In this document: in pieces, positions 11,270-64,000 of the stretch
How positions within the stretch are numbered: position 1 is the stretch's first letter
Layout of the letters: each line of letters starts with the position of its first letter
Origin: Eledone cirrhosa
Taxonomy: Eukaryota
Length of the DNA stretch: 64,000 nucleotides
Direction: 5' to 3'
Assembly (NCBI GenBank): GCA_964016885.1
Contig: OZ024743.1
Span: 56,544,001 to 56,608,000 of the forward strand
Made by a program: the position numbers and the translations under genes
The notes under the pieces: model-generated
Told to the model about the DNA's origin: nothing
Databases searched by the model: none
The model's input: the letters and a program-made list of their open reading frames with translations, nothing else

Positions 11270-11495
11270 ATATATATCGTTATACTTTGGGAGGGTCATG
11301 CTACCAATAAAAACACGCACACCTGTTGGTTTTCACTTTAATTTACTATAAATTTCCGGTTGGCTGGATAACCGGATGGTTGTTTATACATTTTCAAAGC
11401 TCTTTCGTCACACATTCTGTGACCTCCTCAGTGACTAAGTTTTTATTTTGTCTTCCCTTGGTTCTGTCCTACACCATCTTGTTTTTGTGAGTAAA
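11270..11495 (-). mobile_element. Solo Penelope-like 3' end with hammerhead motif
   Basis: Homologous to 56362-56620; HHR at 11393-11435. Confidence 0.8.
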
Positions 11496-11819
11496 TTTTT
11501 TAAATGTTATTTATACAACTGTGAACCTTGGAAAATATAAAATGCTTCTTAAATAAGGCGAAAACAAAAAATAATAAAATGTTTTTACTTAGAGAAGAAT
11601 GGATACTCAGTAGCATGTGAACTCGAAATTGTCGTCTACGTTTAAGGACCACCAGGCTGGGAACCGCTGGGTTTGTGTTCCTGTAAAACTTTCAAGATGG
11701 AACCTAAAAGAGAGTTTAGCGTTTAGTTGAGTTGTTTCGGGAGGATGGAGTGAGTTGTTTAGGTGGTACGTAATCTTTCTAGTTGATATAGAGACAGGTT
11801 TAAAAATTTGAAATAAATA

Positions 11820-12065
11820 AATGTCGGCCTCCTACGCATATCTGTCGTTGTATGTAAAAGGAGAGTAAGATTTGCTGGCCACTGCTATCGTACCACCTCT
11901 GGGGATGTGTCCCCACTAGTGATTTGGAAACCACAAGCAATCACTAAAAACAGGGGCGCAAGCTCTCCTATCCCTATGTCATCTAGAGAGATTCTGGTAT
12001 TGAAATCCAGGACTTGGCAACGGCAATGAACGATAGACCAACGTGGAGATCGATTGTTGAGTAAC
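11820..12065 (+). mobile_element. RTE/RTE-X-like LINE 3' fragment
   Basis: RRVRFAGHCYR...LVIWKP...AMNDRPTWRSIV read across frameshifts. Confidence 0.6.
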
Positions 12066-12239
12066 ATTGCAAATATCTTTTAAATATATACATAAATAAA
12101 ATTCTAATTTTATTTTTAAATAACATTACACATGCGTAAATAACATTATAAATTGCTCGCCATTCGTTCAGAAGGACAATACAAATATAATGTCTAAACA
12201 GTGTATAATAACAATAATATAAATTCACTGAACAAGAAT

Positions 12240-12440
12240 GATAAAAGAAAGGGAAAAAAGGGGGCGGTCACCATCAAGTGTGATAATCGGCTACACCTCA
12301 CACCTTAGGGGTTAACTGCACACTTGAGGCAAGCCAACGCGTTCGCAGCATTACCACGGGTGATGGCGAGGCTAAGGCGGCGCTGAAATAACCAGGCACT
12401 CACACGGGTATCACCTGACACCGAAGCCGCCGGATGTTTT
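12240..12440 (-). mobile_element. CRE-type retroelement 3' fragment
   Basis: WLFQR..LSLAITRGNAANAL; homologous to 42680-42875 and 52580-52660. Confidence 0.7.
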
Positions 12441-12519
12441 TTTATTCTTATTCACAGTTGTATAAATAACATTATAAATAGTTCACTGTTCTTTCAGAAT
12501 GAAAATATAATCACATAAT

Positions 12520-59428: not shown

Positions 59429-59696
59429 ACTATTCTCAGCTAAGTATCCAGGCAAAGCGTGGACTCTGGAAACTTATTCAAAAATAATTCAGTGGATAGA
59501 AAATAGCAAAGCGTGGACTGAATTCCTAGCCATTGAGAAAATCACTGCCTCTGCGTCGGTGGCAAATTCAAAATGAATCAATCACATGACATCGAGGTCA
59601 ATCAGTGGAAAGTGGTTTGTTAATAAGACAGCGGCCTGCCTGCTACCATAGCAGCAGTCTTGGCCAATATTGCTCGACAAATAATTTGGAGATAAT

Positions 59697-59938
59697 TATA
59701 AAGAATTAATATCAAGTAACATATATATACATACAGATGCATATCAATGCTAGCAAATATATAGGTTTTGTCTTAGTAACTTTGTGGTTCAATGCATGGG
59801 GTTGCAGAACAATAATATTATTGTTCTGCAACCCCATGCATTGAACCACAAAGTTACTAAGACAAAACCTATATATTTGCTAGCATTGATATGCATCTGT
59901 ATGTATATATATATGTTACTAGATATTAATTCTTTATA
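59697..59938. repeat. ~240-bp spacerless palindrome
   Basis: Centre aataat|attatt at 59816/59817; one mismatch and one TA indel. Confidence 0.95.
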
Positions 59939-60021
59939 TATATATATATATATATACCAGATAGAAAAATGCGTACAGCAAAAAAAAGTAATATTGTTGG
60001 AATATAAACCTTTAAAAATAC

Positions 60022-60135
60022 AGGACAAGAAACTAAAATAAAACTTTAAAAGAATAGGACAAGAAACTAAGATAAAACTTTAAAAGAATAGGACAAGAAA
60101 CTAAGATAAAACTTTAAAGAATTGGACAAGAAATA
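60022..60135. repeat. 34-bp tandem repeat, about 3.4 units
   Basis: aggacaagaaactaagataaaactttaaaagaat. Confidence 0.9.
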
Positions 60136-61859
60136 AAACATTTTACAATAATATTAGTGGCAAAATTTTTATTGGTAAAAAATCGAGTTCCACATTCATA
60201 GGCTCTGGGTTCCACATTTAGAGGTCGTCTCAGACCGGGGGGATCATTTGATCCTGGTTTGAACACCAATTGGGCCATAACCATACCCCTATTTCATCAT
60301 TCGGCGACACGCCTCATGTGTCATGCATAATGTGAATGGACCCATGGGCCCATGAGCACAGATCTTGAGCAGCAGCGGACGGTCTTGTCGTCCCGCTCAT
60401 CCTTGATCTTGACCAACCCCTCCATCTTCTTCTTGCATCTTGTCCTTGAGTTCAAGTCCGGCAGTCCAGATGAATGCGTGCCACAGCTTTCTGGTACAGG
60501 AAGGGGGAGCAGGAGGACTGGAGGGATGACGGGACAGAGGGAGGGAGGACCGGTTGTTGAGGGAGGTGCCGTAGTCGGTGGTCAGAGTCGACATCTTGTC
60601 CCGGTCGTCTTCTCCATCTTCGTCTGGTGTTGCGGGACCAGAAGTGCATTCTTGGAGGAGACCTACAGCTGCATCGGCCAATTCTTCTTGCAATGGTCAT
60701 TCTGACGCTCCAATTTACTTACAAAGCAAAACGTGGTCAAATACCTTATCATCTCTGATAAAATGCCCATTGAATCACTGAAAATCGGATGCATGGAATT
60801 CCTCATAAAATGCACCTATGAATCGGAAGCCATCACATATATCAATGGATATAGGGAGTTGTTCACACTGGAAGACCATCACTTCATTTGTGACTTCATC
60901 AGTTATCTCCACGATTATCTCAGACACCCAATGCCATTGATGAGAGGTGATCCAATGTGTGAGCATGTAACTAATCTTATAGAAGTTGTTATCGACCACC
61001 TGGCTTTTAGTGACATTTGACTGATTTGACTGATAATGATGTATTTTTAAAAAGTATGTGTACATTCTTGTTACTATTTTAAGGCAATGCAAGCAACAAC
61101 TATTTAATAAAATTTAAATTTAAAAATGACCATTGTGCATTACTAGTATGATGACATTTTATTAAGTCACAAAATTAGTCAGTCAGCCATAGAACAAGGA
61201 TCAGGTGGCAAAAACATTGGCAAAAATTTGTATCAATTTAAGATTTCCAACATTGTTCAAATGAATCATATCTGGTTTGAAGTCAGATTTGTCAAATTTT
61301 GACCAATTTTCAATGTTGTGAAGATTGGGCAAGTTCAATTTTTGAATCATTTTTTTCATGCAGTAATTAAACTTTTCCAAACGTCATCATTTCTGGATTA
61401 CCTCCCCTAGCGTCACGCTTACTACTCACTCACTTGAACACAAGATTTATCAGCAAACTTTGATTATAAACTTTTTCCCGCTGGACCAAATTTCTAGATT
61501 TTTAAGCCAAAAGATGCGTAATGATCTACTGTTCATGCTCATATAAGTCTTATCTCAGTTAAATAAAGTAGAGCCGCGCTGTACTGTCGTAAACAGACGA
61601 TTGCCAACGAAAACACGACCACAACAATATTATTAAACGGACTACCGTCCGTTTAGGATATATATATATATATATTTCGTTTCTGAATTTGTTATATATA
61701 TATATATTTGTTATATATATATATATATATATATATATATATATATATATATATATATATATATATATATATATATATATTTGTTATATATATATATATA
61801 TTTGTTATATATATATATATATATATATATATATATATATATATATATATATATACAGT

Positions 61860-64000
61860 ATTTTCCGTAGTGTTGTAATATAAATATTACACACAGTAGA
61901 TGGACAGCTCACGTAGAGTTTGCTCGACGGTTCCAGTTGTAGTTCCAAAAGTAATCCGGAGAAAAATAGAAGGATTTAAATGGATACAGTTTAGTTAAAA
62001 GGAATTTATTGACACGTGTTTCAATAACAGTTACATAACCTGAAAACAGCTGCTATCTACAAAGTATTAGTTATGCAGACATTCAATATTTCAATGTTAT
62101 TATCAACTGTCATTTCATCAGAATAATTTTACTGAGGACCTGTTTGGTTTTTATAGAGAATATTAGGAGGGAGGGGTGAAGTTGTTAGAAGAATCGTTGA
62201 GGGAGTGGTTTTTTGATAGCAGTGAGAATTTTTGGTGGCAGTGAGTAATTAGATTCCCATCTGTTCTTTTGACATTTTTATAGAATATATTATTGGTTAT
62301 TTTTCTAAATCTATAGAAGGATTAGAGATAGTATAGATATGCATGGTTGGTTTTGTGTTTGCACTTAATTAACATTCAGACTTAAATTTTTCTTTCAAGT
62401 GTACGTATCCTTTCGCCCACGCATTCACACACAAACATATATGCACACCTCTACAAAATACATATACTCACATACACATACTTACATGCTCATACTTACA
62501 TACATATACACATGCACACATATATATATACATATATATACACATATATACATGTACATACATACGCATCCATGTGTATACATTTTCATACTCAACTTAT
62601 CTTTATATACACACGTATAGACACACACATATATACATACATACTCCAGTCTATGTGTATATATATATATATATATATATATATATATATATATATATAT
62701 ATATATAAACACTTTAATAGATGAATACACTTACATCCAACTATATACATCAAACATATATATATATATTTACTTATTTATATACATTTTCACATATATA
62801 TACATACATATGGTCGCTTTTAGACACATTCATTATAGCATATTTGCACCTATTCTCATCAGCATATCTTTCCATTATTAGTGTGGTAATTTAAGGTTAT
62901 TAATATACATATATATGTTGAGAAGAGATTGTTTTTATATTTTTCTAACTAGATTGAGGTTTATATAGTTGGGGGATGTCCCTCTTTTATGTACTATTCA
63001 GCTTGTAGTGGGAAAAAAGGGTTTTAGTTCGGTGACGGCAGAATAATGTTCGTTCAATTCTGTTATTCAGCAATTTCTTCTTGTGTGTGATTATGTAATA
63101 AATCTCAAGATTACACAATTTGCAGAAATTTTGGCTCCTGGAAAAGCTTTGGGTTTTAGCTAATTTCTCCCATTTTAGGGTAAACTTTTGATCGCTATTC
63201 CTGAGCGTCCAAGCTTTTTCTGCTAAAGTTGTTACATTTCTTTGGCTCTGGTGTTTTATTGAGCAAGAATGCCTATATAATCGAGATTTAAACGATGTTG
63301 CCGTTGATCCCACGTAATACCACTCGTTGCCTCCGGATTTAATGGTACACTTATAAATAATATTTTTTTCCAGGCAGTTATTGCCGAGGAGGCAGTTGTC
63401 AGGATAGGTGCAGTTACAGTTGTGTACGTTGGGTTTTCTCTGGAGTAGTATTGCGGACGAACTTAGGTGTGGTTTATTTATGTTCTGTAGTGTATTGTCT
63501 ACTGTTTTTTTTTTTTGTGTTCTTTGTACTTAAGTTTTTAGTGTTTTCGTTTAACCTTCTAGTATTGATCTTTTTTATGTGTTGTTCAAGGTTTAACGCT
63601 GTAGAGTATGACAGTCTTATAGTGGTAGGGTTTAGGATTTTGTGGTATTTGTGTGATGTAGGAAAATGTCTCTTAATTATTTTAAAGAAGAGTACTGGTA
63701 AATTTGTACTAATGGAACTATTGTATTCAGGGTTATACCATAAGTACTCTTTGCATCGCTTTCTATTAGTTTTGTTTCCACGAACCAAAGTATCGTCTTC
63801 CTGTCTTCCTCCGGTTGCAACGTTTTTTAAAATATTTACTTCTGCGTTCACAGATTGACTTCGTTAGTTTCAGAAGATCCCGTTTAGGGTGAAAGCAGCG
63901 ATTCTTTGCTTAAACTTTAATCTGTTATTTTAATAAATATTTGCTCTACGGTTCTTATATATTTGATATATATTTTCCTTATCGAGCCCTCTTTGGATTT
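61860..64000 (-). mobile_element. Penelope-like element (GIY-YIG; resembles the Hydra group), frameshifted, running off the window
   Basis: LWYNPEY..STN...HKYHKILNPTTIRLSYS, CNC..C..C..IIYKC, YVGST..FKSRLY.H, KW, CKLC, LLN.R...CRH. Confidence 0.88.
62006..62126 (-). ncRNA. Hammerhead ribozyme with a 10-bp stem II and 72-nt insert
   Basis: ttatt CTGATGA aatgacagtt..72 nt..aactgttatt GAAAC acgt GTC aataa. Confidence 0.72.

Follow-up and report, generated by a model that had tools for sequence, protein, structure and literature searches.

Type I hammerhead ribozyme motifs at the 3′ ends of Penelope-like elements and in non-coding tandem units of Eledone cirrhosa

Minimal dimeric hammerhead ribozymes (HHRs) of Penelope-like elements (PLEs), retrozymes, U.U and C.A mismatches beside the catalytic core, pseudoknots, (TA)n targets, and inverted copies have all been described previously (PMC4209133; PMC7229834; 10.64898/2026.07.22.740005; PMC11167929; PMC8557442; PMC3088659; PMC6765202). 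In the present study, we analyzed a 64-kb stretch of the Eledone cirrhosa genome (assembly GCA_964016885.1, contig OZ024743.1, positions 56,544,001 to 56,608,000 of the forward strand), hereafter the window, in which 11 complete type I HHR cores were distributed among seven families, A to G. These cores are very probably located at the 3′ ends of PLEs, mostly as 5′-truncated and often inverted pieces of Neptune-type and Hydra-clade elements that encode a reverse transcriptase (RT) and a GIY-YIG endonuclease; two of them, in families D and E, belong to tandem units with no open reading frame (ORF), for the copying of which the same enzymes likely act in trans.

The HHRs of PLE pseudo-long terminal repeats (pseudo-LTRs) reported by Cervera and de la Pena (2014; PMC4209133) resemble those in the window in having a type I topology with a tiny or palindromic stem III, an additional base that separates position 9 from 10.1 (seen here in family A), mostly solo truncated copies, and opposite-strand pairs. 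However, that report describes a helix II of 6-8 bp with a conserved G10.1-C11.1 pair and thousands of HHRs per genome, whereas families B, E, and F carry stem II domains of 49-92 nt with A.A or C.A, and the extrapolated number here is approximately 248,000. Animal non-LTR retrozymes (PMC7229834; 10.64898/2026.07.22.740005) are similar to families D and E in their ORF-less tandem units, type I HHR, low GC content, and co-occurrence with PLEs. Families D and E differ in their 420-570-bp units, which have inversions of the PLE type, (TA)n as targets, and 3′ ends fixed at two positions, in the long two-part stem II of E, and in that no homology to a PLE pseudo-LTR was found. Palindromic stem III, mismatches at 10.1-11.1, and pseudoknots between stems I and II are already published; the very high load, the long covarying stem II, and the PLE insertion marks on non-coding units appear to be new within the known system of PLE hammerheads and retrozymes. 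No report of 50-100-nt stem II domains in PLE or retrozyme HHRs was found in a literature search by title and the start of the abstract, and an earlier description is possible. Lunse et al. 2017 may contain some of these variants.

Hammerhead cores in the window and in the genome

The descriptor with which type I cores were identified combines CTGANGA, a stem II with a minimum of 3 bp, GAAA-N..N-T-H, and a stem I with the same minimum. It tolerates stem II domains as long as 120 nt, one additional base following A9, or mismatched positions 10.1-11.1, in the usual HHR numbering (as in PMC4209133). The 11 cores of the window, in which CUGANGA, GAAA, and NUH are closed by three stems, compare with 0.11 ± 0.31 (maximum 1) in 200 local dinucleotide shuffles. 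They belong to the following features, in which L numbers denote loci retrieved from elsewhere in the genome.

11274..11492 (minus): family A, a Neptune-type PLE represented by its short 3′ end; core 11431 with cleavage predicted after 11397; L117 and L118 contain the family ORF
42950..43222 (minus): family G, a Hydra-type PLE represented by its 3′ end and an inverted 3′ piece; core 43098, which is complete, with cleavage predicted after 43049; sister copy L296
45756..47447 (unstranded): family B, 1.2-kb 3′ untranslated region (UTR) of a Hydra-type PLE with an inverted copy; cores 45917 (minus) and 47286 (plus), 82-nt stem II domain, A.A at 10.1-11.1; based on mapping to L119 and covariation
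52900..53148 (plus): family C, low-copy old 3′ end; core 53045, U.U at 10.1-11.1; weak Hydra link through an endonuclease match in L235
53362..54045 (minus): family D retrozyme, 1.6 units of ~420 bp; complete core 53584, mutated core near 54000
56362..58778 (unstranded): family A inverted pair; cores 56552 (minus) and 58531 (plus) around RT-thumb and GIY-YIG pieces at 56762-57337 (minus) and 57364-58320 (plus)
58779..58867 (unstranded): (TA)n target common to the neighboring A and F copies
58868..59258 (minus): family F, a Hydra-clade PLE of which a 5′-truncated 3′ end is present; core 59016 with a rod-like stem II of 88 nt; short 3′ end, extending ~45 nt beyond the cleavage site
59297..59938 (minus): family E retrozyme, a single unit of 522 bp accompanied by an inverted 3′ piece; core 59423, 49-nt stem II domain, C.A at 10.1-11.1; predicted pseudoknot of 59433-59437 with 59404-59408
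61856..63810 (minus): longer family F copy; ORF remnant 62990-63776 (92-99% identical to the full ORF), 3′ UTR, core 62121, 92-nt stem II, long 3′ end (~160 nt)

The original prediction, which was made from the sequence without database searches, named ten complete or near-complete sites and five halves or degenerate cores. Nine of the ten pass the descriptor, while the site at 31964 fails, its first stem I pair being broken and its weak stem II containing a duplication of downstream sequence. Among the other five, 17331, 30545, and 30822 are indeed 3′ halves and 56226 has a changed core, but 43060 is complete (core 43098). The core at 53584 and its core-mutated tandem copy were absent from that list. 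The proposed minimum of six sequence-unrelated families was exceeded, with seven families containing complete cores and four broken ones, between which a self-BLAST of the window detected no similarity. Rfam returned zero gathering-level HHR matches in the window and two weak HH10 matches on the 30545 hairpin (E 0.21 and 0.34), which agrees with the expectation that long-stem-II variants escape standard searches.

The genome was sampled in 58 stretches of 10 kb, hand-picked at approximately even spacing on contigs C1-C7 (~1.95 Gb of the 3.0-Gb assembly). These 580 kb contained 48 cores, versus 0.53 after shuffling, which extrapolates to ~248,000 HHRs per genome (bootstrap 155,000-351,000), or ~1 per 12 kb and ~83 per Mb. 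The density of the window (11 in 64 kb) is not set apart from these samples (bootstrap P ~0.06), and the idea of a local swarm was not borne out; the HHR motifs of the window are real and typical of the whole genome. In the axolotl, 126,247 type I HHRs have been published for 28.2 Gb, namely, ~4.5 per Mb, a value obtained with a different descriptor and, thus, not comparable like for like with ~83 per Mb.

Seven tight patterns, all of which miss diverged copies, gave 69,804 matches in the genome: 8,168 for A, 7,754 for B-type, 4 for C, 24,767 for D (the largest single pattern), 10,840 for E, 3,049 for F-type, and 15,222 for G. The B-type count is somewhat high because approximately 5 of 30 loci read were duplicates, chimeras, or doubtful. 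Patterns with a long stem II (49-97 nt) had ~21,600 matches. Since the ORF-bearing families A, B, F, and G account for 34,193 of the 69,804 matches, the split between coding and non-coding families is nearly even genome-wide. Reversed patterns yielded 0-10 matches each versus thousands, and, together with the shuffles of the window and genome samples, they rule out a chance origin of the motifs.

Coding families and their insertion marks

Eight of the 11 cores in the window are the 3′ ends of autonomous PLEs, one Neptune-type and three Hydra-clade families, which are 5′-truncated and often inverted. They comprise seven of the sites originally regarded as complete together with 43060; longer copies of these families encode RT and GIY-YIG, and two of the eight cores adjoin ORF remnants in the window itself (56762-58320 and 62990-63776). 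A retrozyme is expected to have no protein-coding parent, whereas A, B, F, and G each have one; it is 5′ truncation, together with the length of the 3′ UTRs, that makes the pieces in the window look non-coding.

Regarding family F, RT/GIY-YIG ORF pieces were present in all ten retrieved loci that had been chosen for multiple HHRs. In L032, an HHR, a 777-codon open frame, a ~1-kb 3′ UTR, and a second HHR form a 3.55-kb unit, and the ORF contains the motifs RWK, DKT, CxCx5C, CxxC, and CxH, as in the definition of the Hydra clade (Craig et al., 2021; PMC8557442). The single ORF with RT plus a C-terminally located GIY-YIG domain that characterizes Hydra was found in F and, by homology, in B and G, the ORF pieces of which are 24-64% identical to F. 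The (TA)n targets, partial tandems, and inverted truncated copies described for that clade also occur here. On the other hand, Hydra elements in that report are generally <3 kb with tails of 30-40 nt, whereas the present units span ~3.6 kb, their 3′ UTRs being 1-1.3 kb and their tails ~90-120 nt long. A Naiad identity for F was excluded because the endonuclease is C-terminal. No Naiad ORF was detected among 400 ORFs of the retrieved loci, and inspection by eye of two published cephalopod Naiads revealed no HHR that was clearly complete at their 3′ ends. The homologues of F are unnamed proteins of 435-937 aa, and Pfam did not recognize the PLE ORF pieces of the window. A near-full Hydra-type element, 59-61% identical to F, was also observed at 1245-4231 of L230 between two HHRs with a 90-nt stem II and represents an additional long-stem family.

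Family A is tentatively assigned to the Neptune type because its longer copies (L117 and L118) encode RT and an endonuclease with a Cx4CxxC linker. Neptune elements have a Cx2-5CxxC linker, common to Nematis, before a C-terminal GIY-YIG domain and a (TA)n target, as found in A, and a (TA)n bias has been linked to Neptune (PMC8557442). In L119, the 3′ UTR that makes up the palindrome of family B maps just behind the ORF, to within a few bases of its end, and a sister subfamily copy of family G (L296) is arranged as HHR-ORF-HHR over 3.7 kb. Family C has a weak Hydra link, an endonuclease match of 27% identity upstream in L235, one of three other copies; a similar link in L234 was withdrawn because the match belongs to an element of family K, which has Hydra-type endonuclease remnants 450-1025 bp upstream in L001 and L234.

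The earlier description of these motifs as (TA)n-embedded and often folded back is supported by the flanking sequences. Within 250 nt on the 3′ side of the cleavage site, a (TA)4 run is present in 10 of the 11 window cores (17% of random window positions) and in 43 of the 48 sampled cores (23% in the control). Four window cores form HHR-bearing inverted pairs and two more have an inverted 3′ piece according to the self-BLAST, while 17 of the 48 sampled cores have an opposite-strand twin. The fold-backs of the window are the known inversion structure of PLEs. At 58779-59296, A, (TA)n, F, (TA)n, and E follow one another as a nested chain.

Nearly all copies retain sequence 3′ of the cleavage site, and their 3′ ends are bimodal. 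In loci that were chosen by pattern, mostly on C1, and with read-through copies included in the totals, these ends lie at +45 (22) and +163 (23) of 50 in F, at +61 (32) and +178 to +187 (22) of 78 in E, and at +216 to +223 (13) and +265 to +275 (10) of 43 in D. PLE RT has been reported to start at two internal sites, giving a tail called unique to PLEs (PMC11167929). Considering the two preferred 3′ ends, (TA)n targets, and inversions of D and E, these families are likely substrates of PLE enzymes, which would move them.

Non-coding families and ribozyme anatomy

Families D and E are composed of ORF-less, head-to-tail tandem units, each with a type I HHR, which corresponds to the sequence definition of non-LTR retrozymes. 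The unit of E is ~520-570 bp and shows head-to-tail runs, inversions, and (TA)n flanks, while that of D is 420-500 bp and forms arrays of 5-7 or more. The longest ATG-initiated ORF in four scanned D and E units was 29-72 aa. In seven D or E loci with a nearby PLE match, each unit was bounded by its own TA runs. The unit of D is predicted to fold strongly as a circle (z -7.3). A head-to-tail junction was present in three runs of one sample, among four contig runs, in data of a kind that cannot show RNA ends.

Five of the 11 window cores have a perfectly palindromic stem III. In folding predictions, stem III formed no hairpin alone in any of eight segments and a self-duplex of -2.2 to -10.3 kcal/mol in seven of them, which is in keeping with the published dimer model and with the tiny, dimer-type stem III originally proposed. 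The G10.1-C11.1 pair of type I HHRs is replaced by A.A, C.A, or U.U in 6 of the 11 window cores, and this position is non-canonical in 15 of the 48 sampled cores; in E, a G-C pair comes next in 22 of 24 aligned rows. U.U and C.A beside the core are published exceptions: File S2 of PMC8557442 already lists the former for Hydra and the latter for PLE-X1, and U10.1.U11.1 is tolerated in pseudoknotted HHRs (PMC3088659). The same File S2 gives a loop 2 of 3-10 nt for Hydra and a maximum of 35 nt in the whole file, whereas the stem II domains here reach 49-97 nt. The core-only search in that report had a 7-17-nt spacer; 35 of our 48 sampled cores have a spacer of >17 nt, and 6 have a stem II of at least 40 nt.

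The 88-nt stem II of F is predicted to fold as a single rod (-24.1 kcal/mol), that of B as an interrupted rod, and that of E as a stem, an internal loop, and a stem. In an alignment of 24 copies of E, from which three 5′-truncated copies were left out and to which two genome-sample copies were added, 93% of cells were paired, with 59 double changes versus 18.6 in shuffled and 2-9 in slid controls. One stem II pair occurred in all four Watson-Crick forms (G-C 7, A-U 6, U-A 6, and C-G 5), and C10.1 and A11.1 were invariant in all 24 rows. For B (23 copies), 90% were paired, with 30 double changes versus 11.3 in shuffled controls; RNAalifold recovered only 6 distal pairs because the subfamilies differ by a bulge, and the named structure was counted afterwards, so that the result for B leans toward the proposed model. 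Covariation among copies, the lack of which would have told against the original prediction, is present in E and B, while the copies of F are too young. These counts are supportive rather than probabilities because related copies inflate them and the structures are our own.

In pseudoknotted HHRs (Perreault et al., 2011; PMC3088659), stem I-stem II pairing serves as a tertiary contact in approximately 40% of the set. A similar contact is predicted in E, namely, a 5-bp helix between loop 1 and the internal loop of stem II, 95% paired and with one pair changed from G-C to A-U in 4 of 24 rows, but here the partner is an internal loop situated 6 bp up the long stem II of a retrozyme HHR of dimer type. 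No consistent partner was found for a pseudoknot in B, and only AT-rich candidates in F, for which none is claimed. Outside the window, a further long-stem-II family (L125, L126, L138, L147, L148, and L299-L311) has a 93-97-nt stem II with U.U beside the core. In 15 of 19 copies, a GCCC in its stem II matches a GGGC immediately 5′ of stem I; this match, conserved with no compensatory change, likely represents a second pseudoknot.

Proposed mobilization, alternatives, and remaining features

In the mechanism that we propose, the endonuclease would nick a (TA)n target and RT would start at one of two internal sites of the RNA, ~45-220 or 160-275 nt past the ribozyme site depending on the family, and would copy back through that site. 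Since the copies run through the cleavage site, the template would be uncut or re-ligated there. Early stops of RT would give 5′ truncations, while template switching or second priming would give fold-backs. A single stem III is too weak by itself, and pairing of this stem across two copies is predicted; thus, cleavage would take place in tandem transcripts and yield unit-length RNA, possibly circular. The long stem II domains may be tolerated distal extensions, and the internal loop of E would pair with loop 1 as a tertiary contact.

Several points weigh against this reading. Published PLE HHRs cleave poorly (PMC4209133), one of nine Xenopus retrozyme dimers cleaved (10.64898/2026.07.22.740005), and cleavage is dispensable for insertion in vitro (PMC11167929). 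Many junctions here have 2-4 nt of TA microhomology, versus the priming without homology described in PMC11167929, and the tails of ~50-120 nt do not suggest a simple match to the tail in that report. The clades were assigned by motif and not by tree, and 17 of 43 rows were dropped from the 3′-end test of G because they did not align to the reference subfamily. An autonomous partner of D and E was not found by sequence matching to seven PLE end regions. The pseudoknot of E is supported by conservation and by a single compensated pair, which occurs in 4 of 24 rows and probably reflects one event, and z-scores for folding of the whole motif are weak (-1.9 to +0.6).

The original prediction was of a largely non-coding, retrozyme-like ecosystem of PLE parasites. 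Its PLE connection, its many families, and the existence of real non-coding retrozymes (D and E) were substantiated, and D is the most numerous single pattern counted; moreover, parents of family I and of the half motif at 17331 were not found among the retrieved loci. However, ORF-bearing longer copies exist for the families of 8 of the 11 window cores and 34,193 of the 69,804 pattern matches, which makes it improbable that the units are mostly non-coding parasites. An origin of D and E as satellites that emerged a single time from the end of a PLE and expanded locally through unequal crossing-over rather than by retrotransposition would account for head-to-tail arrays of 5-7 or more units, and this route has been proposed (10.64898/2026.07.22.740005). 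We consider it more doubtful still, given that D and E copies are dispersed along the listed chromosomes, (TA)n-flanked, and inverted like PLE insertions with two fixed end sites, and that diverged E subfamilies keep their pairing through double changes, which points to selection on the RNA. It is somewhat less unlikely, but still unlikely, that the motifs keep the hammerhead fold, rarely or never cut, and serve as a protein-binding or packaging structure. The sequence retained 3′ of the cleavage site in nearly all copies and the non-canonical 10.1-11.1 of the sampled cores are consistent with such a role, as is an anole element in which HHR mutants had no effect on insertion and RNA-seq gave no ends at the site (PMC11167929). 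Nevertheless, the catalytic nucleotides and NUH are kept across unrelated families, although our searches required them, protein-assisted cleavage was shown in the same report, and an axolotl HHR with a U.U mismatch has been published to cleave as a dimer.

A broader proposal may be made, which we hold tentatively and with some doubt: this genome may carry ~80 HHRs per Mb, a load far above that in the reports cited here, including an undescribed active class with a 50-100-nt stem II that standard searches miss, and tens of thousands of retrozyme copies may have been moved in trans by (TA)n-targeting PLE RTs from two internal starts. It would then offer defined pairs of RNA and protein for testing how animal retrozymes move. 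Published support for their mobilization by PLEs consists of co-occurrence and pseudo-LTR homology (10.64898/2026.07.22.740005), to which the ORF-less units add structural evidence in the form of inversions of the PLE type, (TA)n targets, and 3′ ends fixed at two sites. An in vitro test is within reach because this genome also contains a young family with an open ORF (F). The long-stem-II motifs also suggest that HHR counts in animals are underestimates and that some PLEs called ribozyme-less deserve a second search.

The half and degenerate motifs of the window are as follows.

17331..17404 (unstranded): fold-back with a 3′ HHR half only (stem III TTCGAA); no relative in the retrieved loci
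30545..30735 (unstranded): family K fold-back with a 3′ HHR half; complete cores elsewhere in the genome
30720..30836 (minus): family I, 5′-truncated half HHR
31964..32028 (minus): degenerate HHR (family H-like), fails the descriptor
56226..56340 (plus): family I with a changed catalytic core

Relatives of the last motif at L105 and L172 have an intact core. A repeated TA-flanked end at 47735-47857 and 63816-63940, with a short hairpin followed by GAAA and no intact CTGANGA, is possibly a degenerate HHR family, while a 41-bp tandem array at 36407-37056 (16 copies) contains CTGANGA and no hammerhead. Fold-backs without an HHR core occur at 10909-11161, 21450-21580, and 40657-40776, the last of these being part of a (TCA)n-linked repeat that is abundant.

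A short dispersed repeat, very abundant and often forming fold-backs, starts with an (ATT)n run and is present at 7231-7556 and at approximately 15 further places up to 50650; at 47454, one of its copies directly adjoins the family B 3′ end. RT remnants of the long interspersed nuclear element type were observed at 548-1306 and 14461-15498 (both Pfam RVT_1), 41073-41987, and 7808-8197 (Pfam zf-RVT), and degenerate telomere-like hexamer tracts at 4052-4620 and 15756-15846. A 297-aa open frame at 24836-25729 (plus) has no Pfam match and presumably resembles transposase-derived proteins of invertebrates. A 386-aa open frame at 27431-28591 (plus) ends in tandem C2H2 zinc fingers and is likely an exon of a host gene.

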